This document shows positions 410-55,869 of a DNA stretch of 56,872 nucleotides, piece by piece. This DNA comes from a virus (taxonomy: Duplodnaviria; Caudoviricetes), in the IMG/VR virus record IMGVR_UViG_3300046170_000355, positions 1-56,872 of that record; one strand, 5' to 3'. Position 1 is the first letter of the stretch; each line of letters starts with the position of its first letter. The notes below the pieces were generated by a model. That model did not search any database. It had not been told where the DNA came from and saw nothing but the letters and a program-made list of their open reading frames with translations. A program made the translations under genes and the position numbers.

Positions 410-1888
410 ATGGATATTGAAAAATACAAAACACTAGACAAAGAGCAGCTAAAAGCAATGGTTTTGCTTCGTCAAAAGATCGAACAAGAGGGTGCACGCA
501 CTAATTTTATGCGTTTTGTTAAAGCGGTGTGGCCAGAATTTGTCGAAGGACCACATCATCTACGAACATCAGAAAAATTTCAAAAATTTTCTACCGACAA
601 AGCTTGTCGCTTAATAATCAACATGCCACCTAGACATACAAAGTCAGAATTCGCTAGTTATTTGTTTCCGGCATGGATGATGGGACTTAATCCAAAATTA
701 AAAATTATTCAAGCAACTCACACTGGTGAACTTGCAGTTAGATTTGGTAGAAAAATTCGTAACCTAATGAATACAAAAGAATATAAACGTATATTCCCTA
801 GTGTAACGTTGCGAACAGATAACCAAGCTGCAGGTCGTTGGGAAACGAATCATGGAGGCGAATACTTTGCAGCAGGTGTAGGCGGTGCAATCACCGGTCG
901 TGGTGCTGATCTGTTAATTATTGATGACCCTCATTCAGAACAAGATGCTTTATCAGAAACTGCAATGGATAATGCCTATGAATGGTACACCTCAGGTCCT
1001 AGACAACGTTTACAACCTGGTGGATCAATAGCTATTGTGATGACTCGCTGGTCTCAAAAAGATTTAACAGCTCAACTTGTGAAAAAGATGGGAGACCTTA
1101 AAGCTGATAAATGGGACTTGGTAGAATTTCCTGCCATCTTAGAAGATGAGGATGAAGAGAAAAGAAAACCTATTTGGCCTCAGTATTGGAAACTTGAAGA
1201 ACTTGATAAAGTAAAAGCTTCTTTGGTTCCTAGTAAATGGAACGCTCAATGGCAACAAAATCCTACGTACGATGGTACGAGCATCATTAAACGCGAATGG
1301 TGGAGGGTGTGGGACAAGGAAACCACCCCTGAATGTTATTTTAAGATTCAAACATACGATACTGCATTTTCAAAAAAAGAAACTGCGGACTATTCTGTTA
1401 TTGCTACTTGGGGAATATTCTATCCAAACGAGGGTGACGAGCCTCATATCATTTTGCTAGATATCGACAAAGGTCGATGGGACTTTCCTGAACTCAAAAA
1501 AATGGCTATGGAAAATCTTAGGTACCACGACCCTGAATTAGTAATTATTGAAGCAAAGGCAACCGGGATGCCCTTGATACATGAGCTTAGACGAGCTGGC
1601 GTGTACGCCACTGCCTATTCCCCGAACCGCGGTCAGGACAAACATGTTCGTGTTAATACAGTCGCCCCTATATTCGAAGCGGGCCACGTGTGGCGGTCCA
1701 ATGACGACTTCGCAATTGAAATGATGGAAGAGTGTGCGTCCTTTCCTTTCGGAGAACATGATGATTTAGTTGACGCAATGACATTGGCTTTGTTAAGATA
1801 TCGTCAAGGAAACTTGGTGGAATTAGCTGATGACGAAGATGACTATATACCAAGGAGTAAACGAAACTATGAATACTATAACGGTTAA
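410..1888 (+). CDS. terL: Terminase large subunit
   Basis: Walker A-like INMPPRHTKS, Walker B LLIIDDP, coupling motif VMTRW, nuclease acidic residues (YDTA, HDDLVDA); start probably ATG 410 rather than TTG 353. Confidence 0.95.
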   Translation: MDIEKYKTLDKEQLKAMVLLRQKIEQEGARTNFMRFVKAVWPEFVEGPHHLRTSEKFQKFSTDKACRLIINMPPRHTKSEFASYLFPAWMMGLNPKLKIIQATHTGELAVRFGRKIRNLMNTKEYKRIFPSVTLRTDNQAAGRWETNHGGEYFAAGVGGAITGRGADLLIIDDPHSEQDALSETAMDNAYEWYTSGPRQRLQPGGSIAIVMTRWSQKDLTAQLVKKMGDLKADKWDLVEFPAILEDEDEEKRKPIWPQYWKLEELDKVKASLVPSKWNAQWQQNPTYDGTSIIKREWWRVWDKETTPECYFKIQTYDTAFSKKETADYSVIATWGIFYPNEGDEPHIILLDIDKGRWDFPELKKMAMENLRYHDPELVIIEAKATGMPLIHELRRAGVYATAYSPNRGQDKHVRVNTVAPIFEAGHVWRSNDDFAIEMMEECASFPFGEHDDLVDAMTLALLRYRQGNLVELADDEDDYIPRSKRNYEYYNG

Positions 1889-2458: not shown

Positions 2459-4840
2459 ATGGCAGATAATATTGATAAAGGTTTAGACCTAGGTGGTAAA
2501 CCTGAACTTGAAATTTTAAAAAAAGAAACGGAAGTAATAGTTGATGGACAACAAATTCCAACACCTGAAGGTTTAGAAATTGAAATGGACGAAGAGGGTG
2601 GTGCCACTCTTGATTTTGATCCAAGAGAAGCTTTACCTGAAATAGAATTTTACTCTAACTTAGCAGAAGTTATTGATGATCGTGATTTAGATCAATTATC
2701 AGATGAACTAATGGGAGATTTTGAAAGTGATAAATCTTCTCGTAAAGAATGGGAAGACGCTTATATCAAAGGATTAGATCTTCTAGGTTTAAATTACAAA
2801 GAGAGAACAAACCCGTTCCGCGGAGCGAGTGCCGCTAGTCATCCTCTTCTAGCTGAGAGTGCTACACAGTTTCAAGCGACAGCGTTTAAAGAGTTGTTAC
2901 CTGCAGGCGGACCTGTGCGAACTATTATCATGGGAGAAGAAACACCGGACAAGTATGCAAGAGCTGGACGTGTTCAAGAGTTTATGAATTTTCAGTTAAT
3001 GAATAAAATGGAAGATTATACTCCAGAGTATGATCAGATGTTATTTTATTTACCTTTAGCGGGATCGACCTTTAAAAAAGTTTACTACGATGAGTTAATG
3101 GACAGACCTGTTTCTAAGTTTGTTCCCGCAGAAGATTTAGTTGTTAACTATATGGCAACAGACCTAGATGGCTGCGAAAGAATTTGTCATGTCATTAACA
3201 TGAGTTACAATGATTTTCGTAAAAAACAAGTTTCTGGTTTCTACAAAGATGTAGAAATACTTCCTCAAGAAGCAGAGGCAGATAGAGTCAAACAAAAGTA
3301 TGATCAGATTGATGGTCAAAGACCTAGTTATGCAGATAAAGTTATAAAGCTTTATGAGTTTCATACTTCTATAGATTTAAAAAATTTCGAAGACCAAGAT
3401 GAAACAGGAGAAATGACAGGAATAAAAATTCCTTACATTGTAACTATAGAAGAGGGATCTAGTAGGGTCGTAGGTATTCGTAGAAATTTTGAAAAAGATG
3501 ATCCGAAGAAAATGAAGAAACAATACTTTGTTCAATATAAGTTTTTACCTGGTTTAGGTTTTTATGGTTTTGGTTTAATTCACATGATCGGTGGTTTATC
3601 TAGAACAGCTACTGATATTTTACGACAACTAATTGATGCCGGTACTCTATCCAATCTACCCGCAGGATTTAAAGCCCGGGGTATCCGTATGAGAGACGAT
3701 GCTGATCCTTTACAACCCGGAGAGTTTAGAGATATTGATGCACCAAACGGTGATTTAAGAAACTCTTTTATGCCCCTTCCTTATAAGGAACCTTCTCAAA
3801 CATTATACAGTCTTTTAGGTTTTGTCGTGCAAGCCGGACAACGATTCGCTAGCATCGCAGATATGCAAGTGGGAGACGCTAATCAAAATGCTCCTGTCGG
3901 AACAACAATAGCTTTATTAGAACGTGGTTCCAAAATTATGTCAGCGATTCATAAACGCTGCTACTATTCTCAAAGAAAAGAATTTAAATTATTATATAAA
4001 GTTTTTGGTGATTATTTACCAGAAACATACCCTTATTCTGTAGAAGGTGCTGATAGAACTATTAAAGCAGAAGACTTTGATAGTAGTTTAGATGTACTGC
4101 CTATAGCGGATCCTAACATTTTCTCCACAGCACAAAGAGTTACTTTAGCACAAACTGAACTACAGCTAGCACAAAGTGCCCCTGATTTACACAACATGAA
4201 AGAGGCATATCGCAGAATGTATGAAGCTTTAGGTGTAAAAGATGTGGATCAAATTTTACGAAAAGATACTCCAGTAGCTCCAAAAGATCCTGCTATGGAA
4301 CATTCAGATTTACTCGATGGTAATTTAATGCGTGTTTACGAAGGACAAGATCATGATGCACATATTCAAAACCATTTAATTTTTGGAACTAATCAAATGA
4401 TTTTAAGTAACCCTGCTATGGCTATGAAACTACAGAAACACATTTTGGAACATGTATCTTTAAAAGCAAAAGAACAAGTATCATTCTTAATTAGTCAAGG
4501 ACAACTTCCTGAAGAAGACATGGATCAGGCTATTGCTAGATTAGAAGCTCAGTTCATGGGAGAATTAAAACAAACATCTCAACAACTTTCTGGAGGAGGA
4601 CAACCTGATCCTGCTATACAATTAAAACAACAAGAACTACAACAAGATGCACAAAAAGATCAAATGGATTCTCAAAGAGATCAAGCAAGAATACAATTAG
4701 ACGCTGAAAGACTTAGACAAAGAACTGCAATTGATCAAGCTAGAATACAAAAAGATTATGATATTGCAGATAGGCGAGCTGAAGTTCAGTACGACAAAAT
4801 GACTACGCAAACATTAAATCAGAGAAATAAAAATGCCTAA
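2459..4840 (+). CDS. Portal protein
   Basis: 793 aa after the terminases; HPLLAE, LPLAGSTFKKVYYD, FYGFGLIHMIGGL motifs and a C-terminal coiled coil as in P22-like portals. Confidence 0.9.
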   Translation: MADNIDKGLDLGGKPELEILKKETEVIVDGQQIPTPEGLEIEMDEEGGATLDFDPREALPEIEFYSNLAEVIDDRDLDQLSDELMGDFESDKSSRKEWEDAYIKGLDLLGLNYKERTNPFRGASAASHPLLAESATQFQATAFKELLPAGGPVRTIIMGEETPDKYARAGRVQEFMNFQLMNKMEDYTPEYDQMLFYLPLAGSTFKKVYYDELMDRPVSKFVPAEDLVVNYMATDLDGCERICHVINMSYNDFRKKQVSGFYKDVEILPQEAEADRVKQKYDQIDGQRPSYADKVIKLYEFHTSIDLKNFEDQDETGEMTGIKIPYIVTIEEGSSRVVGIRRNFEKDDPKKMKKQYFVQYKFLPGLGFYGFGLIHMIGGLSRTATDILRQLIDAGTLSNLPAGFKARGIRMRDDADPLQPGEFRDIDAPNGDLRNSFMPLPYKEPSQTLYSLLGFVVQAGQRFASIADMQVGDANQNAPVGTTIALLERGSKIMSAIHKRCYYSQRKEFKLLYKVFGDYLPETYPYSVEGADRTIKAEDFDSSLDVLPIADPNIFSTAQRVTLAQTELQLAQSAPDLHNMKEAYRRMYEALGVKDVDQILRKDTPVAPKDPAMEHSDLLDGNLMRVYEGQDHDAHIQNHLIFGTNQMILSNPAMAMKLQKHILEHVSLKAKEQVSFLISQGQLPEEDMDQAIARLEAQFMGELKQTSQQLSGGGQPDPAIQLKQQELQQDAQKDQMDSQRDQARIQLDAERLRQRTAIDQARIQKDYDIADRRAEVQYDKMTTQTLNQRNKNA

Positions 4841-5963: not shown

Positions 5964-6366
5964 ACTAATACTTCCTAAAGGTTTTCAAAAGAAAACCAAA
6001 ACAAATGAAGAAAAGAATAAAGAACCTGCTATGGAAAGAGTTCCTCAAGCGACAGGTTGGAGAATGGTAATTCTACCTTATAAAGGCGTAGAAAAAACAA
6101 AGGGTGGTTTATTACTTACTGATAAAGCCATCGAGGAACAACAGCTCACTACTAATGTGGGTTTAATATTAAGTATGGGTTCTGATGCTTATGCTGATAA
6201 GAATAAATTTCCTAATGGACCTTGGTGTAAAAAAGGTGATTGGGTAGTATTTGCTAAATATGCTGGCTCTAGAGTCAAAATTGAAGGCGGAGAAATACGT
6301 ATTCTTAATGATGATGAAATATTAGCAAAGTTGAAAGATCCAAAAGACGTACTAACTATCTATTAA
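5956..6366 (+). CDS. groES: GroES-like co-chaperonin
   Basis: EKTKGGLLL mobile loop, GDWVVFAKYAGS, ILNDDEILA. Confidence 0.9.
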   Translation: MSKLILPKGFQKKTKTNEEKNKEPAMERVPQATGWRMVILPYKGVEKTKGGLLLTDKAIEEQQLTTNVGLILSMGSDAYADKNKFPNGPWCKKGDWVVFAKYAGSRVKIEGGEIRILNDDEILAKLKDPKDVLTIY

Positions 6367-6376
6367 GGAGATAAAA

Positions 6377-7288
6377 ATGACTGAAGAAAAAATGGTAGAC
6401 CTTGACACTACAGGAGAGGGTCAAGAGGTTGAACTTCAAGGCGAAGAATCTACTAAAGAAGAAAAAGTCGAAGAAGAAAAAGTAGAGACTTCATCTGAGG
6501 ATAAAACAGAAGAATCATCTGAAGAAGATTCTAAAGATGATGGTTTAGATAAATACTCTAAAAATGTTCAAAGAAGAATTAAAAAACTTTTAGATAGAGT
6601 AGAAAAAACTGAACAACGTGAACAAGAAGCTCTTCGTTTTGCAGAAAACGCTAAGAAAAAATACGAAGATTATGAAAATAAAATAAAGTCTTTAGATGAG
6701 AATTATATTAGTGAATACGAAAGTAGAGTTAAATCTCAAATAGAACAAACTAAAAAATCTTATCAAGATGCTTTGTTGAACAATGATGTTAATGCTCAAG
6801 TTGAAGCTCAAAGAGCCTTGACTAGATTAGCTATTGAAGAAGAAAGAGCATTAGCTTCTAAGCAACAACGAGAAGCTTTACAAAAACAACAAGAAGGTTT
6901 AATGGCTGAAAAACCACAGGAGCAGCAACCTGTTCCTAGACAACCTGATGTAAAAGCAGAACAATGGGCGCAGGATAATAAATGGTTTGGTCAAGACGAA
7001 GCTATGACTTTTACTGCTCTTGCTCATCATAAAAATTTATTAAAAGAAGGATATGACCCTAAAAGTGATGAATATTATGGTGAAATAAACTCTTACATGA
7101 GGAATCAATTTCCTCATAAATTTGGAGAAGCAAAATCCGAAACAAAAGAAAAAGCACCTGTAATGGTGGCTTCTGCTTCTCGTTCACAAAAAACAAGCGG
7201 TTCTAAAAAAGTAAAACTAACCCCTAGTCAAGTAGCAATTGCAAAAAAACTAGGTCTTACTCTTGAACAATACGCTAAATATGTATAG
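6377..7288 (+). CDS. Putative scaffolding protein
   Basis: Acidic N-terminus, coiled coil, C-terminal LTPSQVAIAKKLGLTLEQYAKY; lies upstream of capsid genes. Confidence 0.7.
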   Translation: MTEEKMVDLDTTGEGQEVELQGEESTKEEKVEEEKVETSSEDKTEESSEEDSKDDGLDKYSKNVQRRIKKLLDRVEKTEQREQEALRFAENAKKKYEDYENKIKSLDENYISEYESRVKSQIEQTKKSYQDALLNNDVNAQVEAQRALTRLAIEEERALASKQQREALQKQQEGLMAEKPQEQQPVPRQPDVKAEQWAQDNKWFGQDEAMTFTALAHHKNLLKEGYDPKSDEYYGEINSYMRNQFPHKFGEAKSETKEKAPVMVASASRSQKTSGSKKVKLTPSQVAIAKKLGLTLEQYAKYV

Positions 7289-11023: not shown

Positions 11024-12422
11024 AGCAGATACTTGCTTACCTGATGTAGAAGGACTTTGTACTCCTGGTGTCACTATTGAAGAAGATGTTACTGTAGAAA
11101 AAACAGAAGAAGATAAAGGTACAGAAATTATCTATACCACCACAACCACCACAACCACCACTACAACAACTGTTACTAATGAAGATTCAGGAGACATTCT
11201 TGATGGTGATAATGATTATGTCACTACAAGCAAAGAAGGTGATATGGATTACGATTGGGGTGGTCAAGGCCCTGCAAATATTCCTAGTGGTAATTCTTGT
11301 TATGGCCTCGGTTCTGATAAGTGTGCTCAGATTACAGGTGGAGGTAATTCAACTTCTAATATGGGTGTTGATGGTATGGGTACAACATTTGTTAATACAA
11401 TTGACATTTCTGATTTAAGTATAGATAAGGGTGGTCAAGTTAGATATTCCATAAAGGTTGATAAACAAGATGCTCAAGATCGAATCTACATGCACATTAC
11501 AGGAACTAATGGAGGGACTACAGTCTTTTCAGGCACTGATGTTTTGTCTGAATCTGGAGTTTCGTCAGGCTATCAATCATACAATGGAGCTTTCGATTTC
11601 AGTGGCGTTTTAAAAAGTTTAACAATTGAAATAGGGGGTAGGGATATTAATCTTGCTATAGGTCCTTTATTTGACGATGTATCGGTCAATGTATTCTACA
11701 ATGTTATCAATACGATTATTGAACAACAAATCACTTCAGTAGAAGAAATAGTTTATCTCAATATCTTTGATCCTGTAGAAATAGAATATGCTACAGAGAT
11801 TATTGAATTTAATGATGTCGTTGTTGATGATGCGGGAGACGTGAGTTTTGAACCTATAGAACCTCAACAAGAAGAAGTTTCTTATGAAACGGTTGAGGTA
11901 GAAATACAAGAAATACAAACAGATTTTGAAGTAGATATACCAGAACCTGAAACACAAATGGCAGAAGTAGAAATGGAAATTGAAGCAGAATTAGAAGAGA
12001 CAATTGAAGTAGCTAGTGTCGAAGAGACCAAAGAAGAACCTTCAGAAAAGCCTGTTGAAGAAACTAAAGAAGAGGTTCCTGTAGAAAGTGAAAATAGTCC
12101 TAAAACTGTAGAAGAAAAACCTGAAGAGGTTGAAGAACCAGAAGAAAAACCTGCAAAAGAACCTTCAGCAAAAGAAAAAGCAGCTACAAAAATAGTTAAA
12201 GATATTGATGATAAAGAACGTTATGACGACACTGCTCAAACAAAAACATTACTTGTAATGCAGATATTAGGTGATACAAAAACCTTCTTTACTCCTACTC
12301 AAAGCTTTACAGAAGTAGATGTAGGGGAGTATTTAAACAAGACATTAGAGGATCAATATGGTATGTTATTTGATATGGCACAAGAAAATACAATTCAGGA
12401 GATGATAAATGGCCAGTATTGA
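10956..12422 (+). CDS. Exported acidic protein with a beta-rich domain and a Glu-rich linker
   Basis: Signal peptide-like N-terminus, poly-Thr tract, E/K/P-rich region. Confidence 0.7.
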   Translation: MMYNKLLYLKLCLFLLLVSFYSKADTCLPDVEGLCTPGVTIEEDVTVEKTEEDKGTEIIYTTTTTTTTTTTTVTNEDSGDILDGDNDYVTTSKEGDMDYDWGGQGPANIPSGNSCYGLGSDKCAQITGGGNSTSNMGVDGMGTTFVNTIDISDLSIDKGGQVRYSIKVDKQDAQDRIYMHITGTNGGTTVFSGTDVLSESGVSSGYQSYNGAFDFSGVLKSLTIEIGGRDINLAIGPLFDDVSVNVFYNVINTIIEQQITSVEEIVYLNIFDPVEIEYATEIIEFNDVVVDDAGDVSFEPIEPQQEEVSYETVEVEIQEIQTDFEVDIPEPETQMAEVEMEIEAELEETIEVASVEETKEEPSEKPVEETKEEVPVESENSPKTVEEKPEEVEEPEEKPAKEPSAKEKAATKIVKDIDDKERYDDTAQTKTLLVMQILGDTKTFFTPTQSFTEVDVGEYLNKTLEDQYGMLFDMAQENTIQEMINGQY

Positions 12423-30154: not shown

Positions 30155-32971
30155 TGGCTACTCAATCAGAATTAGAAATTTTATTAGATAGATCTATAGA
30201 CCGTTCCTACTTCTTTAGGTAGGGCTGTGGGTAAAAGAAGTTTCTATGAAATATTAGGAGAAGATTATGATTTCGATAATACTCCTATTGAAATAATAGA
30301 AATGGATTTACTTCAATTTAGTGAATCTTCTCAATTACCTAGCCCTTATAGTAGTGATCAATTACAGTTGATTTATGATGAAGCAATTAAAAAAGGTTAT
30401 GATGGTACTTACAGAGATTTTTTAAGTGACTTTGGAAATGTTTCAGAGGATTTTGTCAGTATACCTATGGCTAGAAGTGGCGGAGAAGTTTTAGCACGTT
30501 CTATGTTTCAACCACAGATTGTGAGAAGACAAACGGGTACCCCTATAACAGGTGAAATGAAAAATGTTTTAAGAGATGAATTTCAAGCTAGTGAAAATAA
30601 TATTAAAAATTTATCTTCTTTAACTCCTGATGCTAGAGACGTTTTAATGGAAGCGTTATCTATGAGAAACATTGGGGTTTTTAAAGAAAAACCTGAATTA
30701 GATGATTATGGAAAGACTGTTATTGATCCTGAATTTCAAAACTTTTTATTAAGCACTTATGGAGAAAGAGGCCAAAGTATTTTGGACACTCTTTTACAAG
30801 GTAATAACTCAGAAAACTTCAGCATGTTAACTGGTTTAATGAATGAGTTTACTAATTTTAAAATTTCAAATGAGATGAAAGAAAAAGAAGCTGTCCCCTC
30901 TAGAAGCGATGGTTTATCTGAGGCAGAAAAAAACTTTTTAAATAGATTAAAAAATAGAGCTGAAGGATCACCTATGGAAGGTGAAAGATCAGATGCTGTT
31001 GGTATTGCTGATGGATTAGATCAAGAGACAATGCAAGCAGATCCTAATACTGAAGGTGTTGCAAAAGTTTCTCCTGAGCAATATGTCGAACTCATGAACC
31101 AAGTTCGTGGTGATGAAGTTCCTATGGAAGGAAGAGTTCAAGAACTAGCGATGACTGTTGGAGAGAAAGACGCTCAAGATACTCCCTTATCTGTCTTAGC
31201 TTTAGTTCAGCCCGTCTTTGAATTACAAGAGCAACAAGGAGGGTTAGCCGCGGCCCCCGGAGCGCAACAAATGATGCAACAACAAGCTCCTATGATGATG
31301 GCAAAAGACGGAGGCATTGTTCATCGTTTTAATGGTAGTGATCCAATGGGTGAAAATGCACAGAATTTATTTTCTGCTTTAGGTGGATCAGGGGTTTATG
31401 ATCCTGCAAAATTACAAATAGCAGATGCTTTGGCGAAAGTTTATGGAGTAACTGCTGACCCTTTTGATACTCAAGGTGCTCGTCAAAAGTATGAACAAAT
31501 GTTAATAGATAAAGAAGGTTTAAGAGACGAAGCTTTCTTAGCAGCCGCACCAGAATTCTTACAATTAGGAGCTGCAGCTTTAACTCCGGGCGCTACAATG
31601 GCAGATATACTAACACAAGCAGCCACAGGTGTGGCTAGGTTTGGTACAACACAAGGTAAAAAACTTAAAAATCTCGAAAATCAGGCATTAAAAATGGCTT
31701 TAGCCGATAAGGCAACACAAGATAAATCAAAACAAGCTTATATTGGAGCCATTACAGGTCCTCTTTTAGAAGATGCTTTAAAGACTTCAGCAGAAAGTGA
31801 CTTAGAAAACTTAACTATTGAGGAACTAAGTGTAAAAGTAGCGGGAGATAAATTAAATAATCTATTAACAGACACTGACCTAACTGCTAAAAATCTTGAA
31901 TTAAGTTATATGGATGAAAATTTAAAAACAGATTTATTAGCTAAAAAAGCAGAGTTACAAACAACTTTAACACTTTTAGAAAATTTACCAGAGAAGCAAA
32001 GATTAGAAAACCAAGGATTAATCAATCAAAATAAATTAGCTATCGCTCAGATTGAAGCGGCAGATTTAACTAATCAATTAACTCAGTTTGATATTGATAA
32101 GAGACCGATTACTGATGCACTAGCTATTGAAAATCAAACAATTGCTAACCTTAGTGCACAATTAGATCTTAACCAAAAACCTGAATTATTAGAACAACAG
32201 TTATTACAATTAAAAGGTAACAACGAAAAATTATACAAAGAATTAGATGTATTTGATCAGGTAACCGCACAAACCTTCTACAAAAATCAGTTGGATATAG
32301 AGAAAATTGAAAAAGAAATAAACGATCCTTCAAAAGACAAAGATCAAATAAAAGGTGAAGCTGATTTAAGAAAGGAATATAACAAAAATGCTTCTATTGA
32401 AGGTTTAGTTAAAAGGAATGGTTATTACACGCAAATACGAAACGCATTATTAGAGCCTATTTCTGAAGAACAAGCACTTAAAATGGCAGAAGGAACAAAT
32501 AATGAAGACTTCAAAAAAATGCTTAGAGATAACCCTAGTGGTGCAAAAGATTTGATTATTATGTTCAACTTCATGAAGATGTTAGATCCTGACTCTGTTG
32601 TTAGAGAAGGTGAGCAGTTATTGTTAAAGAAAACAAATCCTATTACACAAAAATATCAAACATTTATTGATACTATTAATGGTGGTGGTTTCCTCGGACC
32701 GAAGCAAAAACAAATGTTATTACAAGAAACAAAGATATTAATGGATACATCTTTCAATGATTTCTTAGAACAAAGAGAAAACTACGTTAATATTGGAATA
32801 GATAATTTTGGAGATAAGTTTAACGCAGAAACTCAATTACCAATGCCTAGTCTTGATGTTTATCAGAATGATGTGACTAGTGGAATAATAGAAAAATTGA
32901 TATCAGGCGATGGTCAAGATTTAACGGTTGGTGGAACGAATTATTCAGGATATTTAGGAAGATTTAATTAA
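30154..32971 (+). CDS. Large putative ejection/internal virion protein; apparent +1 error near 30201
   Basis: ATG 30154 joins ORF 30227-32971 if one C is removed; coiled coils; FMKMLDPDSVVREGE motif. Confidence 0.65.
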
Positions 32972-35424
32972 TGGATGTCAACAAATTATTATCTTATGAA
33001 TATTTTGGTCTTCTAACCGATGAAGAAACAGAAGGAGTTAATTCTTTAAGAGGTGCAAATAAATTACCTGCACCTTACGCCTTTGGACAAGAAAAAGATC
33101 CTCAAGAAAATTTAAATGCTTTTAAAGAACTAATAAACTCTTCTGCTGTAGGAGATTTACAATTAAACTTAACAGACGAGGAATATGCTGACCTTTTCTC
33201 TAGTACTCAAAAATTAAATCAATGGTTTGAAAAACCCGAAAACAGAGCAATGGTCGGTGCTACTGTAGGAGGAGTTGTTCTTCCCACTCTTTTACCAGGA
33301 GCAGGTCCCGCAACATTACCTGCTAGAATTGTAGCATTAATAAATAAGTACCCAAGAATGGCAAAAGTATTTGCAGCTATAACAGGAGGTTTTGGTGGAT
33401 CAGCTCCTTTTATTGAAGCAGATTCTGCTCAAGAATTCATTCAACAAGCGGGTAAGTATGGTTTAATAGAGGGTGTAGGAGAAGGAGCTATTCAAACAAT
33501 AGCTAAATTTTTTCCTTTGTTTAAAGATTTCATTAAATCAAGAGTTAAAAAATTTCCAGAAAAAGGAGCGGAAGAAGCGATAGAACAAGGAGTAATTTTA
33601 AGTCCTGCTCAAAGCACATCAGACAGAATAGTCGACACTATACAAAACATAGCAGACAATTCTTGGAGTGGTGGCGGTACAATGGCACAAGGCAGAGCAA
33701 GAGGAATAGAGACTGCGACTGAAAATATTGGAAATTTATTATTAAATAAATTAGATCCAAAAGTAACAAAAGTTTTAGACAACTCTGTTGAAGATTTTGT
33801 AGCAAATGCATCTGGTAAAGATTTTGCGGGAGTAATGCAGAATTTTTTAAAAAATGGAAGATTAGCTCAAGATATATATATTGATCAAGCATATAAAAAT
33901 TTAGACAAAGCTGTTGCAGGAACTATAGGCAATGCAAAAATAGTAGATATTTCAGGTTTAAAAAAATATGTAATGAATTTACAAAAAGACGTTCCTACCG
34001 ACTCTACTTTAGCGACTGTGTATAAACAAATTGCTGATCTTCCAGATTATGTTGACTTTACTTATGCAAAAAATTTACGTTCAATGTTTTTAGGAAATAC
34101 AAAAGCATTTCAAGAAACAGGTATACCTGTTTCTACTTTCTCCACAAAAGTATCAGGAGCTGCTTTTGCAAAAGTAAATAAAGAAATGGAAAACGCTGTA
34201 AAAGCTATCGCAGATAGTCACGCTAATAAATTAATAAATGAGGGTATGGATGAAGTTTTAGCAAAAGAAGCAGGACAAAAATTATTTCAACAATTAAATG
34301 GATCTTTTAGATCTGCACAAGATTTTTTCTCATTAAGTAAAGATACATTCAATGGAACAATGGTGTCTAAAATTATAAACGCAGCACCTGATCGTGTTTA
34401 TAATATGTTGTTAAAATCAAGATCACCAAACTTAGTTAAATCTTTTAATCAGTTATTAGACCAAGCTGTTAAAGATGGGTCTATAAAATTATCAGAAAAA
34501 TTAGGTTTAAAAAAACAAGTTCAAGGAGAATTTTTTGCAAAAATTTTAACAGATAGTCTTGACCAAGGAACTGGAATTGTAAATGCATCTAAGTTATTTC
34601 AACAAATGAGAACTTTTGGCGGCACAGCCAATAGAGCACTAATAGAGTTATTTGATAATGACCCTGGTTTGTTAAAAGATTTTAGATCTTTAACTAGGTC
34701 TCTTCAATTAGCTCAATCAAAAGGTATGGAAGGGGCAAACGGTGGTTTTTTAATTCAATTATTAAGTGCAGGCGCTTTAGGAGAAGTTGTAGGTCCAGAG
34801 GGACTAACCAACTTAGGGTGGGGTGACGCTGCTGCATTTGGTTTAATTTTTGGAGGACCGAAAGCTGTTGCTGATGCTTTTACTAATCCAAACTTTATTA
34901 AAAATATTTTTAAAGTTAATAAATTAAAACCAGGAAGCGATATGTACACTAGAGCAGTCGTACAAACTGTAAGCGATCTTGTAGAAAAAAACTTTATAAG
35001 CAATGAAAATGTTAATGACTTCATTGATGAGGGTGTTCAAAAAAATTATCTAAATGAAAACGCAAAAAAATATTTTGAAAATAAAACTAAAAAACAAGGA
35101 ACCGATAATAGTTCTACTCTTGTTACATCTCCAGAAGAATTAGAAGCAAAAGCAGATTTATTAAAACAATTAGATATTCAAACTTTAGATGATGACGAGC
35201 CTCTAGCTGTTGCTTCTCTTGACTCTCCTCCATCTAGATCCGTGTCTATGGCACCACTAGACTTAGGACCGCTTACAGCTGCTTCAGCACCTCCTTCACA
35301 GTCTATTAATCCAGAAACTATAGCTAGTTTAGATTCTGTTGGACTACCTTTCTTTCAAGCAAAAGATGGTGGATTAGCGAGTATTGAGCAAAAGAAATTT
35401 AAAAAACCACAGGTGGTATCGTAA
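32971..35424 (+). CDS. Large putative ejection/internal virion protein
   Basis: 817 aa, helical with hydrophobic Gly-rich segments; coupled to neighbours. Confidence 0.65.
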   Translation: MDVNKLLSYEYFGLLTDEETEGVNSLRGANKLPAPYAFGQEKDPQENLNAFKELINSSAVGDLQLNLTDEEYADLFSSTQKLNQWFEKPENRAMVGATVGGVVLPTLLPGAGPATLPARIVALINKYPRMAKVFAAITGGFGGSAPFIEADSAQEFIQQAGKYGLIEGVGEGAIQTIAKFFPLFKDFIKSRVKKFPEKGAEEAIEQGVILSPAQSTSDRIVDTIQNIADNSWSGGGTMAQGRARGIETATENIGNLLLNKLDPKVTKVLDNSVEDFVANASGKDFAGVMQNFLKNGRLAQDIYIDQAYKNLDKAVAGTIGNAKIVDISGLKKYVMNLQKDVPTDSTLATVYKQIADLPDYVDFTYAKNLRSMFLGNTKAFQETGIPVSTFSTKVSGAAFAKVNKEMENAVKAIADSHANKLINEGMDEVLAKEAGQKLFQQLNGSFRSAQDFFSLSKDTFNGTMVSKIINAAPDRVYNMLLKSRSPNLVKSFNQLLDQAVKDGSIKLSEKLGLKKQVQGEFFAKILTDSLDQGTGIVNASKLFQQMRTFGGTANRALIELFDNDPGLLKDFRSLTRSLQLAQSKGMEGANGGFLIQLLSAGALGEVVGPEGLTNLGWGDAAAFGLIFGGPKAVADAFTNPNFIKNIFKVNKLKPGSDMYTRAVVQTVSDLVEKNFISNENVNDFIDEGVQKNYLNENAKKYFENKTKKQGTDNSSTLVTSPEELEAKADLLKQLDIQTLDDDEPLAVASLDSPPSRSVSMAPLDLGPLTAASAPPSQSINPETIASLDSVGLPFFQAKDGGLASIEQKKFKKPQVVS

Positions 35425-50847: not shown

Positions 50848-50916
50848 TCTTCTTTCCTTTCTTATATTATTTTATAGCTTTTTACAATAAATGCTACAGA
50901 CACTTTCTTATATATG

Positions 50917-50958
50917 TATACGTGCGTATGCGTATGCACTAATGCAATTTTTATTTAA
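50917..50958 (-). promoter_or_regulatory. Repeated promoter/operator-like element, copy 1
   Basis: + strand TATACGTGCGTAT...GCACTAATGCAATTTTTATTTAA, also at 52331-52375. Confidence 0.55.
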
Positions 50959-51071: not shown

Positions 51072-51341
51072 CTAAAGACTTGGAATAATTGAAAGATCTC
51101 TCAAATTTGTATGAATTGCCCCAACGTCATTTCCTTCTTCATCTGACATAATCATTAATTCAATATCTTGTTTCATTTGTTTGACACCAAAAGGCTTATT
51201 AAGATGAAGGACAATTCCATGTCCATCGATTTCACCCTCTCCCCATTGGTCATGAGGTTTGAAAGTAACTTTTGTTATTCTCATATTTTTTAAAAAATAA
51301 TTTGTTTTCATTTCCCATTCTTTAATTTTACTTTTTTTCAT
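51072..51341 (-). CDS. Array hypothetical protein
   Basis: Motif plus AGGAGG upstream; SDEEGND.G. Confidence 0.8.
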   Translation of the reverse strand: MKKSKIKEWEMKTNYFLKNMRITKVTFKPHDQWGEGEIDGHGIVLHLNKPFGVKQMKQDIELMIMSDEEGNDVGAIHTNLRDLSIIPSL

Positions 51342-51409
51342 TTTTGGTAGCCTCCTATTGCTACAGACACAAAGGGAGGGAAAACTTAATTTCCCTCCCT
51401 TAAAATTAT

Positions 51410-51967
51410 TTAATGACCATATAAAGAATCAGTCTCGTATTTGGGGACATTGTCCCACTTACTGCCATAAGTAAAGCCATATAAAGCAATATGGTTATTT
51501 CTACCCACTCTTTTTGTCATGGTTTCCCCTTTTTCAATCCTTGTTGGTTGGACTTTGTTTCCATATGACCCATTTTGTTCGACATATTCTTTTTGTACTT
51601 TGACAATTTCAATTGTTTGTTTGCCTTTTAGAGCTACAACTTTAAAAAAGTCAACATTGGTTTGATCATATCCCCAAGAACAGTAAATAAAGTCACCGAT
51701 TTGATAATCGTGCCCTTGGCTTCTTTCTTTTCTTCTTTCGACTACAGATTGTTTTTGTGAAATTCTTCTTTCAATAGCTTTTTTGATTGTTTCATCCATT
51801 TGATTCAAATCTTTAAATCTATAATGCCAAAAAGGTTTTTTTGTTTTTGGTGTATGACAACAAGCAACCATTTTTATAGTATCTGCGAATATTTCTAAAT
51901 CGTTTAAATCATCTTTTATAATATGATCTGTATTATATTTTTCGTAGTTGTTTGGTATTATTCTCAT
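51410..51967 (-). CDS. Array hypothetical protein
   Basis: Motif plus AGGAGG upstream; SWGYDQTNVDFFKVV. Confidence 0.85.
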   Translation of the reverse strand: MRIIPNNYEKYNTDHIIKDDLNDLEIFADTIKMVACCHTPKTKKPFWHYRFKDLNQMDETIKKAIERRISQKQSVVERRKERSQGHDYQIGDFIYCSWGYDQTNVDFFKVVALKGKQTIEIVKVQKEYVEQNGSYGNKVQPTRIEKGETMTKRVGRNNHIALYGFTYGSKWDNVPKYETDSLYGH

Positions 51968-52011
51968 AATTTATAGCCTCCTATTGCTACAGACACAAAG
52001 GGAGGGAAAAC

Positions 52012-52296
52012 TTAATTTCCCTCCAATTCTCCTCTTATTGTTTTTATGCAGTCCCAACAAAAAACATTGTCATCAATGTCAAAATTGTTTTTATTCTGAT
52101 AATCTTCAATTTTTTTGTCATCACATTCAAAATTCTCAGAACTTAAATACATAGCTTGTTCTTCTCTTTCTTGATGAGAGCCACCAAGATCAAAATAATC
52201 TTGGCATTTAGAACATTCTCTAAATGAAAATGGTTCATCTGTTAATTCTTCTTGAGTAGATAAAGAAAATGTATCAAATAATTGTTTACTAATCAT
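52012..52296 (-). CDS. Array protein with two CxxC motifs
   Basis: Start at ATG 52296 after the motif RBS; CSKC...CWDC. Confidence 0.75.
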   Translation of the reverse strand: MISKQLFDTFSLSTQEELTDEPFSFRECSKCQDYFDLGGSHQEREEQAMYLSSENFECDDKKIEDYQNKNNFDIDDNVFCWDCIKTIRGELEGN

Positions 52297-52330
52297 TTTT
52301 AATAGCCTCCTATTGCTATAGACACTTATA

Positions 52331-52375
52331 TATACGTGCGTATATGCGTATGGCACTAATGCAATTTTTATTTAA
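52331..52375 (-). promoter_or_regulatory. Repeated promoter/operator-like element, copy 2
   Basis: Near-identical to 50917-50958. Confidence 0.55.
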
Positions 52376-52455
52376 AAAAATTTTTTGAGATCCAGGTTTT
52401 TAAGTAAAAATTTTTGATTTTTTAAATTGCTATAGACACTCAAAGAAATGGGGGA

Positions 52456-52725
52456 TTAACCCCCAAAATCCTTCTTTATTGTTTCAGCTTCTTCGATATC
52501 TCCCCATTGAGTTCTAATCTCATCAAAAGATAATTGAAAAGGATAGTTTGCAAGAAAGGGTTCAAAGTCGTTTATATCTTCCCCTTGCTCTTGGATTTCA
52601 ATGACATTCTCTTGAGCAGAAAAAATAAGATCATTAATTTTTTTCATTTTTTCTAAAAGCTCTAATTTCTGCTCAGTAATATATTTTTGACTTCCTAATT
52701 CTTCTAAAGTTTTATTTATATTCAT
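52456..52725 (-). CDS. Array hypothetical protein
   Basis: Start at ATG 52725 after the motif RBS. Confidence 0.75.
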   Translation of the reverse strand: MNINKTLEELGSQKYITEQKLELLEKMKKINDLIFSAQENVIEIQEQGEDINDFEPFLANYPFQLSFDEIRTQWGDIEEAETIKKDFGG

Positions 52726-52771
52726 ATTAAATAGCCTCCTATTGCTATAGACACTCAGAGAGAAAAGGGGT

Positions 52772-52963: not shown

Positions 52964-53163
52964 TGGCTTTCTTCCTCATAATGTAAATTAGATAAATGAA
53001 TTTCTTTTTCCCAATCTAATTTAAATAAATCGCAATAATGCCTTAAATCTGCAATGACATCCCCAACCCTTGGATATGTGTTTTTCTGGTTCTTCTCATA
53101 AAGTTTTTCATTTAATCCTAAAAGTTTTTTTACTTTTAATGCTCTTTGTCTATTAGTTATCAT
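52960..53163 (-). CDS. Array hypothetical protein
   Basis: Motif RBS; DVIADLRHYCD. Confidence 0.8.
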   Translation of the reverse strand: MITNRQRALKVKKLLGLNEKLYEKNQKNTYPRVGDVIADLRHYCDLFKLDWEKEIHLSNLHYEEESQ

Positions 53164-53177
53164 ATTAAATAGCCTCC

Positions 53178-53507
53178 TTAATTGCTATAGACACTCAAGA
53201 CAAAAAGGGCTAAGAAGCCCTTTTCATTCCTTTCAATGATTGATTTTAGTATAAGTTTAGAAGCCTCGTTGATAGTGTCTTCTTTAATTGCTAGGTGTAA
53301 ATCTTCACTAAGCCAATTATATAAAAAATCAAATTCATCTTTTTTTAATATTACTGCTTCATAATTTTTATGAGTAAATAATATTGCTTTTGATTTTCTC
53401 TCATGAGAGACAATATTTAAAAGAGTATCTAAAAGAACTTTCTTTGATATTTTTTCTCTTTCAAATTGTTCGACTAAATCATTTAAATCATTAATTAAAC
53501 TAGTCAT
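53178..53507 (-). CDS. Array hypothetical protein (C-terminus uncertain)
   Basis: Coupled to the upstream gene; as sequenced it reads through the hairpin and motif. Confidence 0.65.
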   Translation of the reverse strand: MTSLINDLNDLVEQFEREKISKKVLLDTLLNIVSHERKSKAILFTHKNYEAVILKKDEFDFLYNWLSEDLHLAIKEDTINEASKLILKSIIERNEKGFLALFVLSVYSN

Positions 53508-53799
53508 TAATATTTTCCCCCCATCCTTTTGATTTTCTCACTAAATCATAAGCAGAGTTATCATCTAAAATATTGGCTAATTCATAATTTAAATCGTCTT
53601 TTTCTTCTTGCGTCTTGTCCTTATGTAAATCAATTAATTTATCTTCTAGGGTTTCAATTGTGTTTACTAGATTTTGAATATCTTCATTTTGCTTTTTGAT
53701 TTCCTTTTCAAGATCTTTTTTTATTTCTTCAAGATCAATTACTATTTGATTTACTGAATATTGCACCTCTTCATATTTTTCTTTTTGTTTTTTATTCAT
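53500..53799 (-). CDS. Array coiled-coil protein
   Basis: Motif RBS upstream. Confidence 0.8.
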   Translation of the reverse strand: MNKKQKEKYEEVQYSVNQIVIDLEEIKKDLEKEIKKQNEDIQNLVNTIETLEDKLIDLHKDKTQEEKDDLNYELANILDDNSAYDLVRKSKGWGENIND

Positions 53800-53891
53800 A
53801 TTTAATAGCCTCCTATTGCTATAGACACTTAAAGAGAACCACGAAGAGAGAAACTCGCCTCGTGGCTCGTGGCTTTTATTATGATTTATAT

Positions 53892-54063: not shown

Positions 54064-54450
54064 TTAAGCCTCCTCCTGATTTTCAATAGATATATTTTCG
54101 ATTATTCTATTATCGTGGTTGGGATTATTGGTTTCATAACCGAAACCCTCTTCCTCGTCATCATAATTAATATATTCGTCAATACTTTTCCAAGGTTTGA
54201 AAGAGTATTCAAGGCAGTTAGTTGCATAATGATATGCAATAATATGATCATTATTTAAATGTATAAATAAATGAAAAAAATTACCTCCACTTCCATAATT
54301 ATCAACTTCTTTAATTTCATAAAGAATATCGAAATTATTAAACCAAGGGATATTTTTTTTAATAAGATCAAAGAAATATTCTTTTTTATTTATTAAGTCT
54401 GTTAATCTTAAAAATTCAAAATGTTCTTGTCGTGTTAATTGTAGTTTCAT
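54064..54450 (-). CDS. Array hypothetical protein
   Basis: Start at ATG 54450 after the motif RBS. Confidence 0.78.
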   Translation of the reverse strand: MKLQLTRQEHFEFLRLTDLINKKEYFFDLIKKNIPWFNNFDILYEIKEVDNYGSGGNFFHLFIHLNNDHIIAYHYATNCLEYSFKPWKSIDEYINYDDEEEGFGYETNNPNHDNRIIENISIENQEEA

Positions 54451-54492
54451 AATAAATAGCCTCCTATTGCTATAGACACTCAAGAGAAAGGG

Positions 54493-54885: not shown

Positions 54886-54931
54886 AATAAATAGCCTCCT
54901 ATTGCTATAGACACTCAAGGGAAAGGGGACT

Positions 54932-55273
54932 TTATAAGTCCCCATTTAATTTATGGCAATGTAAAGCGTAACCAATGGGGCAACCATGTTTGCCCCATTG
55001 ATCGTCTTTAAAATTATAAAATTCGTTTCTTCTTTGTTCTAAGAAAAAACACTCATACCCATTAAAATCTAATTCATAAGGGTTTAAGTCATCGTCAAAA
55101 TGCCAACATTTGCCAATTTTAACAATGTATCGAATAAAGGCTCTCGCCTCGCTGATCGTTTTAATTTGTTTTCTTATAAAACGATGATAGGGCAATTTTG
55201 TCCAATATTCGTTGGGGTGATCATCTTTTGAAAAACAAAAATCTGCTCTTTGGTTTAAATAATCTTGTTTCAT
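54932..55273 (-). CDS. Array hypothetical protein (first gene after the ribozyme)
   Basis: Motif RBS upstream; WHFDD. Confidence 0.8.
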   Translation of the reverse strand: MKQDYLNQRADFCFSKDDHPNEYWTKLPYHRFIRKQIKTISEARAFIRYIVKIGKCWHFDDDLNPYELDFNGYECFFLEQRRNEFYNFKDDQWGKHGCPIGYALHCHKLNGDL

Positions 55274-55283
55274 AATAAATAGC

Positions 55284-55363
55284 CTCCTATTGCTATAGAC
55301 AAGGGGGAAAATATCCCCCTTTAGTGTTTCGCCTATTTAAGGCTCATCAGTATAGCTTTGGAG
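55284..55363 (-). ncRNA. Type I hammerhead ribozyme
   Basis: Minus strand CUCC AAA GCUAUA CUGAUGA GCCU UAAAU AGGC GAA ACA CUAA AGGGGGA UAUUU UCCCCCU UGU C^UAUAGC AAUA GGAG: complete conserved core, stems I-III and a GUC triplet. Confidence 0.9.
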
Positions 55364-55510
55364 TGTTTCGACTGTTCAACTTTGGAAGGTGTCACCTTCT
55401 AGGCTCTGTGCCTTAAGGACTATCTATTTATCCTCGCATTAAGTGTTCAATATGTTCGGAACACCTAACGAAATAAGTTCAATACTTACCGACCGAAGTC
55501 GACCCTAATT
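55364..55510 (-). ncRNA. Putative structured RNA domain 5' of the hammerhead
   Basis: Six consecutive hairpins, including GAC-UUCG-GUC, in a non-coding stretch. Confidence 0.5.
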
Positions 55511-55742
55511 ACCCCAATGACTAAATTATATAAATCTAGTGTGGTTGTAAAAATGGCTTCAATTAAAATCTTCATTACTAATTAATATAAGCATTTTTAT
55601 CATAAATTAAAGTATTTTATTTGAAATAATTGACTGCCTGAAATCGTAAAAAGACTGGTCCGATTTTAAGAGGGCTAGAAGTGTCAAGTTTATTTTTGAG
55701 AGTGATTTTTTTAGAGCTCTGTTAAAATGCTCTGTATGGCTC

Positions 55743-55869
55743 TTATATGATAAATTATGATATATTTAAAAATAGTTTAATAAACTGCTGCCCTGGTTTC
55801 TCCATTTTAAGACGTTTTTAGATAGGTTGAAAAAGTTCCCCTTATGTTTTTATATGATAAATTATGATA
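55743..55869. repeat. 20-bp direct repeat TTATATGATAAATTATGATA, two copies
   Basis: 55743-55762 and 55850-55869 in the long non-coding region. Confidence 0.8.

Follow-up and report, generated by a model that had tools for sequence, protein, structure and literature searches.

The early operon of the phage genome analysed here (the window, a stretch of 56,872 nt taken at its full length) opens with a complete type I hammerhead, and the substrate half of that hammerhead then recurs ten times on the same strand with no catalytic core of its own. We put the probability that the leader ribozyme also cuts these half sites, in trans or through long-range pairing in cis, at about 0.5, and regard the locus as a candidate natural multi-substrate hammerhead that is open to direct testing. 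The hammerhead itself is genuine at the level of comparative analysis; its catalysis, its action on core-less sites and any effects on translation or transcript stability are inferred.

The window represents a nearly complete (97%) marine tailed-phage genome, which besides the large terminase encodes portal, tail genes, DNA polymerase, primase, helicase, C5 methylase and SNF2 helicase. Its nearest named relatives by TerL (56–60% identity) include Pelagibacter phages HTVC027P and HTVC023P. A T7-type RNA polymerase domain was not found in the genome, which is a weak negative, as the control genomes of one scan gave no match either. In the divergent region between the early and terminase operons, a 19-nt motif, AUCAUAAUUUAUCAUAUAA, occurs twice on the minus strand (55742–55760 and 55850–55868) and may be an operator or promoter element. 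The terminase and the features at the head of the early operon are:

353–1888: large terminase
55364–55540, minus strand: extended non-coding leader (5' limit approximate) abutting the hammerhead on its upstream side, with conservation and structure in relatives
55284–55363, minus strand: complete type I hammerhead (from core, fold and alignment of 13 relatives)
55363–55360, minus strand: CUCC clamp strand of the hammerhead, followed by AAA
55356–55351, minus strand: stem I 5' strand, GCUAUA
55350–55344, minus strand: core CUGAUGA
55343–55331, minus strand: stem II (G CCUU..AAGG C)
55330–55327, minus strand: GAAA of the hammerhead core
55327–55299, minus strand: stem III including a hairpin (C AC..hairpin..GU)
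55300–55298, minus strand: cleavage triplet GUC, with C17 at 55298 and the predicted cut between 55298 and 55297
55297–55292, minus strand: stem I 3' strand, UAUAGC, followed by AAUA
55287–55283, minus strand: Shine-Dalgarno (SD) GGAGG, with the clamp partner GGAG at 55287–55284, followed by GCUAU and ATG 55273
55279–55296, minus strand: local hairpin AUAGC-AAUAGGAG-GCUAU with the SD in its loop (from covariation over 73 sites)
55271–55273, minus strand: ATG of the first early gene (54932–55273, 113 aa, phrog_34896, function unknown)

With its open stem I, the element has type I topology and carries the conserved hammerhead core (C3 U4 G5 A6 N7 G8 A9 and G12 A13 A14) together with an N-U-H triplet. 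Its MFE structure (-30.2 kcal/mol, z = -3.61, with 1 of 200 shuffles equally stable) contains three helices with the G10.1-C11.1 and A15.1-U16.1 pairs; stems II and III form, as does stem I, whose outer helix of 4 bp is separated from its inner helix of 6 bp by an internal loop of 3/4 nt. The fold thus reproduces the stem I proposed in the initial annotation, namely 6 bp, an AAA/AAUA internal loop and a 4-bp CUCC:GGAG helix. Homologues were gathered by pattern scans of IMG/VR, and in an alignment of 13 distinct relatives 99.6% of cells were paired over 18 pairs. Three of the four stem II pairs showed compensatory changes, with pair 10.2/11.2 found as G-C, A-U, C-G and U-A, and the core was invariant apart from N7, which is U or G as the family permits. 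A metagenome scan for family members with different stem I arms returned 0 stretches, and a leader-anchored scan of viral contigs returned already known loci and contigs with no new stem I arms.

No hammerhead reached the Rfam gathering score, either in the window or at six related loci. The top sub-threshold match was HH9, an amniote family (18.3 bits, E = 0.056; gathering score 52), and its alignment placed CUCC/GGAG on the outer stem I helix of HH9; RAGATH-1-HH scored 17 against 56.3 bits. The miss looks like a limit of the models, because phage hammerheads of the same class from other lineages are missed too (none of three scanned loci with a CUUAAUG loop II reached the gathering score). 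The early-operon region holds a single CUGAUGA..GAAAC core with a stem II, and the other core-pattern match in the window (1827–1867, plus strand) lacks stem II. A second GAAAC at 55370–55361 was dropped, as it is not conserved in relatives.

Throughout the hammerhead family of the window, stem III in cis is imperfect, consisting of ACAC:GUGU, a bulge of 3–9 nt and a hairpin, giving the impression of an enzyme module set ahead of a standard site cassette. The more extended ACACU:AGUGU complementarity is missing at the cis site of the window; this was not counted in favour of action in trans, because the cis site has a short deletion relative to the family. Upstream, a leader of about 140–170 nt is conserved (equivalents at L003 10046–10224, minus strand, and in L006–L011, L017 and L070), with compensatory changes in 5 of 23 predicted helix pairs. 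In L003-type loci it begins after a promoter-like TTGACA-16 nt-TAYNNT whose spacer holds a GTACC..GGTAC palindrome, and an E-value Rfam scan of the relatives' leader gave no credible match. Being both conserved and structured, the leader could have a function of its own.

Transcript data were sparse. Logan contigs from three RNA runs, each with a small share, end at the site repeats, which is uninformative since contigs from a DNA run break at the same repeats. An oligo-dT RNA library (run X18, depth 6.4) yielded a 151-nt contig that crosses the uncut cis site (window 55233–55382) and may represent precursor RNA or contaminating DNA.

Downstream of the hammerhead, the initial annotation had proposed that stem I pairs with the SD of several target genes, and the repeats behind that proposal are present: the GUC^URURGC..GGAG half recurs without a core before eight further genes. 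In all, ten core-less GUGUC^URURGCA copies lie on the minus strand between 50892 and 54914, each after a hairpin. At eight of them an SD, GCUAY and the start codon of a small early gene follow; the SD-less copies are those at 52437 and 50901. The sites are:

54903–54914, minus strand: half site GUGUC^UAUAGCA, with a hairpin upstream and SD, GCUAU and ATG 54885 downstream
54468–54479, minus strand: half site before the gene starting at 54450
53817–53828, minus strand: half site before the gene starting at 53799
53183–53194, minus strand: half site before the gene starting at 53163, with the spacer AAUUAA, 2 nt longer
52743–52754, minus strand: half site before the gene starting at 52725
52428–52439, minus strand: half site with no SD and no gene after it
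52314–52325, minus strand: half site before the gene starting at 52296, preceded by a conserved CAUACGC..GCGUAU-type hairpin
51985–51996, minus strand: half site of the UGUAGC variant before the gene starting at 51967
51359–51370, minus strand: half site of the UGUAGC/GCUAC variant before the gene starting at 51341
50892–50903, minus strand: terminal half site with no SD

As had been noted from the sequence, AAUAGGAG is exact in eight copies, the cis site included (55300, 54912, 54477, 53826, 52752, 52323, 51994 and 51368), and the copy at 53192 has a spacer 2 nt longer, carrying AAUUAAGGAG. The motif TATAGCAATAGGAG, with at most two mismatches, occurs 12 times in the window compared with 0.50 expected from shuffles. 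Five related phage records carry the same cluster, with 6–11 sites confined to about 5 kb of a single strand. Across seven operons, each with 7–11 sites, exactly one core was found per operon (7/7), always at the first site, even with one core mismatch allowed.

When the search was made from the RBS alone, 59 of 61 GGAGGCYAY sequences had URURGC and GU[C/U] upstream, and GUGU was present at 58 of 59 RBS-anchored sites, the exception being the window's own cis site. Positions upstream of -5 are near-uninformative (about 0.1–0.3 bits). Position 17 was C in 85 cases, U in 3, A in 3 and G in 0, which fits the NUH rule, within a set gathered by a pattern that fixes the neighbouring bases. The terminal site in each of the other six operons lacks an SD and keeps GUGUC^URURGCA. 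A1.7, the base after URURGC, is A at all 73 sites and contributes to neither the SD nor the local hairpin. It is also A, as is A2.7, in 64/64 distinct hammerheads of other families in the wider class described below, so the half sites keep a class-specific nucleotide.

Two sites per operon follow a conserved hairpin of alternating purines and pyrimidines (CAUACGCG..CGCGUAUG type) that replaces the usual GC hairpin, with AAAAUUGCAU upstream of it in some copies. This hairpin may be an internal promoter, an operator or a special surrogate for stem III, and was located at:

52326–52372 and 50904–50950 of the window, minus strand: alternating purine-pyrimidine hairpin
near 3860 and 1652 of L002, near 3788 of L040, and near 1852 and 2253 of L042: alternating purine-pyrimidine hairpin

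Outside the operon, an exact copy of GUGUCUAUGGCA lies on the opposite strand at 35242–35253 (plus), inside a late gene (ORF 32971–35424) and with no hairpin or SD context; a second phage record has a single opposite-strand copy (G004:C1:30729–30740, minus) about 15–20 kb from its operon. With a chance expectation of about 0.03 such matches per genome, the late-gene copy could reflect conservation of the coding sequence or mark a genuine target in late mRNA.

The clade with a core and half sites is narrow (TerL at least 87% identical). GenBank phages gave no blastn match to the early operon, and the four closest named phages (HTVC027P, HTVC023P, 023Pt_psg01 and DSL-LC04) have neither a core nor a cluster of sites. 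Neither a core nor a GUGUC-type site was found in 72 TerL relatives at 80% identity or less, about 32 of which show more than 3 kb upstream of terL; three of these distant relatives have ordinary RBS repeats only. Because the clade is so narrow, the co-occurrence of core and sites amounts to essentially one evolutionary event.

The clamp on the SD was the central claim of the initial annotation, and it stood in part. It is real and conserved: CUCC, whose absence from homologous loci had been named as grounds for rejecting the idea, is kept in 13/13 distinct hammerheads, and an SD-complementary clamp lies upstream in 15/15 family hammerheads compared with 0/104 other phage hammerheads. Judged from these counts, the clamp is a derived feature of this lineage only. 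CUCC cannot covary, because its partner is the invariant SD, and the competing hairpin described below had been missed. The suggestion that the SD doubles as a recognition element fared less well: it is not the essential one, since SD-less sites retain GUGUC^URURGCA. Likewise, the stem I internal loop had been read as a docking element for loop II; the AAA/AAUA loop is present, and loop II of the CUUAAUG type is common in the wider class, but the spacer that forms it measures anywhere from 1 to 6 nt across the sites, which suggests that no fixed geometry for docking is conserved. Clamp binding might block translation, and product release might relieve the block.

Around the SD, direct support from covariation goes instead to the predicted local hairpin URURGC/GCYAY, which is mutually exclusive with hammerhead stem I. 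Over 73 distinct sites 99.7% of its cells are paired, and two of five pairs switch between A-U and G-C: pair 1.4 is A-U in 43 sites and G-C in 30 with 0 mismatches, and pair 1.2 is A-U in 46, G-C in 21, G.U in 5 and other in 1. None of 500 shuffles reached the hairpin's percent paired, its number of both-side-changed cells or its covariation score; pair-count and pair-type measures were not above shuffles. The only variable stem I positions are 1.2 and 1.4, where the substrate changes from A to G, which still allows a G.U pair to the enzyme's invariant U, and where the local-hairpin partners change from U to C. Pairs 1.3 and 1.5, at which a change would break pairing with the enzyme, are invariant. 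This pattern fits a double constraint on the substrate strand, although so few variable positions fall short of proof. The local hairpin is found at 15/15 family hammerheads and at 9/104 other phage hammerheads.

These elements suggest how one core could serve many sites. Cleavage after GUC would leave a 5'-OH end beginning UAUAGC, and this new end would refold into the AUAGC/GCUAU hairpin, pulling the product off the ribozyme. The same hairpin would cap the 5'-OH end, prevent religation and display the SD in its loop. The leader would remain joined to the enzyme half, and the leader ribozyme, self-released or still tethered, would pair with core-less sites through GCUAUA:URURGC, ACAC:GUGU and, where an SD is present, CUCC:GGAG, the clamp adding four pairs of affinity. 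The polycistronic early RNA would be cut into gene-sized mRNAs, each with a 3' hairpin, derived from the hairpin upstream of the next site, and a 5' SD hairpin. In bacteria, 5'-OH ends and terminal hairpins protect mRNAs, and in phage T7 the host RNase III, acting between genes, gives a similar processing result. In its full form the proposal is that a self-freed ribozyme of about 200–250 nt, comprising the leader and enzyme half, acts as a sequence-guided endonuclease on about ten sites of the same transcript, with the SD clamp supplying affinity and the SD hairpin turnover; we would give this fuller version slightly less than even odds.

Cleavage at the half sites is supported by numbers and complementarity: sites outnumber cores in 7/7 operons, and the half sites can pair with the enzyme arms both 5' and 3' of the scissile bond (GUGU at 58/59 sites, URURGC at 59/61). 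When the released enzyme was cofolded with each site, the cognate three-way junction was the MFE structure at 7 of 10 window sites, and at only 27 of 62 sites across the seven operons. Mean binding energy between enzyme and site was only about 1.2–3.7 kcal/mol better than for random operon segments, and stem III in trans would have just 4–5 bp and face competition from the 3' tail of the enzyme itself. Throughout the clade the enzyme arms do not vary, which leaves no decisive covariation between enzyme and substrate; an enzyme-site trend at 15.5/16.5 (U at 16.5 in 2/25 versus 12/37 sites, Fisher p = 0.03, uncorrected for phylogeny) is weak.

Recombination offers another way to account for the cassettes. 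Of 42 homology-block ends between related operons, 22 are no more than 40 nt away from a site, where about 7–8 would be expected from spacing, and early-gene modules are replaced, inserted and reordered (L039 versus L041, L040 versus L042, window versus L002). Since breakpoints cluster at the cassettes, a gene-shuffling role like that of PeSL elements is real, beside or instead of processing, and concerted evolution could therefore help to keep the cassettes alike. The hammerhead might then act in cis only, trimming or releasing the leader, with the core-less cassettes serving as hairpin-RBS modules that recombination homogenises and that mark swap junctions between early genes, and with a CUCC clamp that exists only so that stem I outcompetes the local hairpin at the first gene. 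The clustered and reordered blocks fit such an arrangement, as do the different genes found behind the same hairpin (L039 versus L041), a within-genome similarity of cassettes that reaches past the hammerhead-relevant bases, the marginal thermodynamics of trans pairing, a leader that could have its own function and the PeSL precedent as outlined in PMC2839356 and PMC4122927. Left unexplained are the strictness of GUGU-C17 (58/59) and A1.7 (73/73) while adjacent bases and hairpins drift, the retention of the motif at SD-less sites, and a conserved block that ends exactly where complementarity to the enzyme ends. Nor is the promoter that a PeSL-like cassette would carry detectable: sigma-70-like matches numbered 25 compared with 29.8 expected, none consistently placed in the cassettes. 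A promoter reading of the site motif itself was rejected on the same lack of enrichment, URURGC also being a poor -10 element. We think a hammerhead confined to cis rather unlikely.

Two further explanations appear improbable. A host or phage endoribonuclease, or an RNA-binding protein, might recognise the hairpin and GUGUCURURGC, the hammerhead producing the same 5' end at the first gene only. Conserved single-stranded motifs beside hairpins are typical of protein RNase sites, and there are precedents in T7, which uses host RNase III between genes, and T4, whose RegB cuts GGAG in early SDs. Yet scanning 10 early proteins per library revealed no RNase or RNA-binding family (Pfam gave sub-threshold matches only, and PHROGs gave unknown-function families and one weak unrelated match). 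If a protein were responsible, it would be a coincidence that the motif exactly complements, to either side of the scissile bond, an RNA enzyme of the same operon and that it retains hammerhead-class nucleotides (A1.7, H17). The CUCC:GGAG pairing might alternatively serve mainly translational control, masking the SD until cleavage and release and so coupling processing to translation. The clamp covers GGAG in the predicted fold and is lineage-specific and kept in all 13 relatives, and RNA viruses in which 5'-UTR self-cleavage is required for translation are described in PMC13725137. Against a mainly regulatory clamp stand its lack of covariation, the variable spacer and the existence of SD-less sites; the local hairpin, moreover, is already a covarying structure around the SD, and the proposed role is not separable from one of plain affinity. 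As the chief purpose of the clamp, translational control would surprise us, while some translational coupling is compatible with multi-site cleavage.

The wider class places cleavage of many sites by the one leader core in context. A scan of IMG/VR for a core with the same loop II type, CUGANGAG-NN-CUUAAUG-NN-CGAAA, returned 90 stretches with many different arms, 64 of them distinct and outside this family. In multi-site loci of other lineages every intergenic site has a complete core of its own, and the few extra 9-mer matches lie within coding sequence. By this comparison, the loss of the core beyond the first site, the SD clamp and the competing hairpin were derived together in this lineage. 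Type I hammerheads with loop II CUUAAUG and a 6-bp stem I are widespread in phages just upstream of genes (L126–L200). In L038, another phage contig, an enzyme-like GCUAUA-CUGAUGAG-stem II-GAAAC with no adjacent cleavage site (11866–11935, plus strand) lies about 220 nt upstream of a complete hammerhead that shares this stem I (GGUC^UAUAGC; 12085–12145, plus strand). Two unrelated large phage contigs carry GGUC-UAUAGC-loop-GCUAUA-CUGAUGAG with a loop-closed stem I (L028 near 6340–6400, plus strand; L037 near 8491 and 4821, minus strand); these resemble hammerhead halves in a permuted, type II/III-like order that share that stem I sequence.

To our knowledge, natural hammerheads act in cis, and the usual view of small self-cleaving ribozymes is that they are cis elements with a single turnover. 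If the multi-site reading is true, the leader hammerhead would be the first small nucleolytic ribozyme in nature to operate as a multi-substrate enzyme; confirmed, it would mean RNA-only operon processing in streamlined marine phages and provide a natural design for compact programmable trans hammerheads. The sister lineages with one core per site are a natural control for the clade with one core and many half sites. Even if the cis cut alone were real, the SD clamp and competing SD-loop hairpin would constitute a processing-linked switch at a bacterial RBS. A search of full-text literature (main texts, non-subscription) found no report of a natural hammerhead in which a single core is accompanied by many substrate-only sites.

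Several known systems share parts of this architecture. Rfam Hammerhead_HH9 (RF02275) is likewise type I, with an internal loop splitting stem I into a 6-bp inner and a 4–5-bp outer helix; the window differs in its score (18.3 against 52 bits) and in an outer helix built from the SD. The discontinuous hammerhead of mammalian Clec2 3' UTRs (Martick et al. 2008, as summarised in PMC6765202) resembles the present one in that its enzyme and substrate strands are non-adjacent and must pair over a long range, but in that summary there is one enzyme strand per substrate strand, in a eukaryotic 3' UTR, and not one for many. In fungal and plant RNA viruses, type I hammerheads in the 5' UTR self-cleave, and there cleavage is needed for translation and linked to its initiation; these are eukaryotic systems with cap-independent translation, for which the sections of PMC13725137 used here mention neither SD pairing nor multiple sites. 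The PeSL cassettes of T4-type phages, promoter-terminator composites according to extracts of PMC2839356 and PMC4122927, are also repeated stem-loops between small early genes at breakpoints of module exchange, whereas the window cassettes have no detectable promoter and contain a ribozyme substrate motif. The haloviruses HF1 and HF2 have an HHphage hammerhead ahead of the first early ORF, although it belongs to an archaeal virus and has a variant core, and the relevant portion of PMC3088659 does not describe repeated substrate halves, an SD clamp or an SD hairpin. The same source (Perreault et al. 2011, PMC3088659) reports, in the portion drawn on here, complete hammerheads flanking genes in prophages and proposes that they cut polycistronic RNA into gene-length mRNAs. 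Those elements likewise have their core in intergenic regions with a proposed role in transcript cutting, but they and the 64 other-lineage hammerheads have a complete ribozyme at each site, compared with one core per operon and 7–11 substrate-only sites here.
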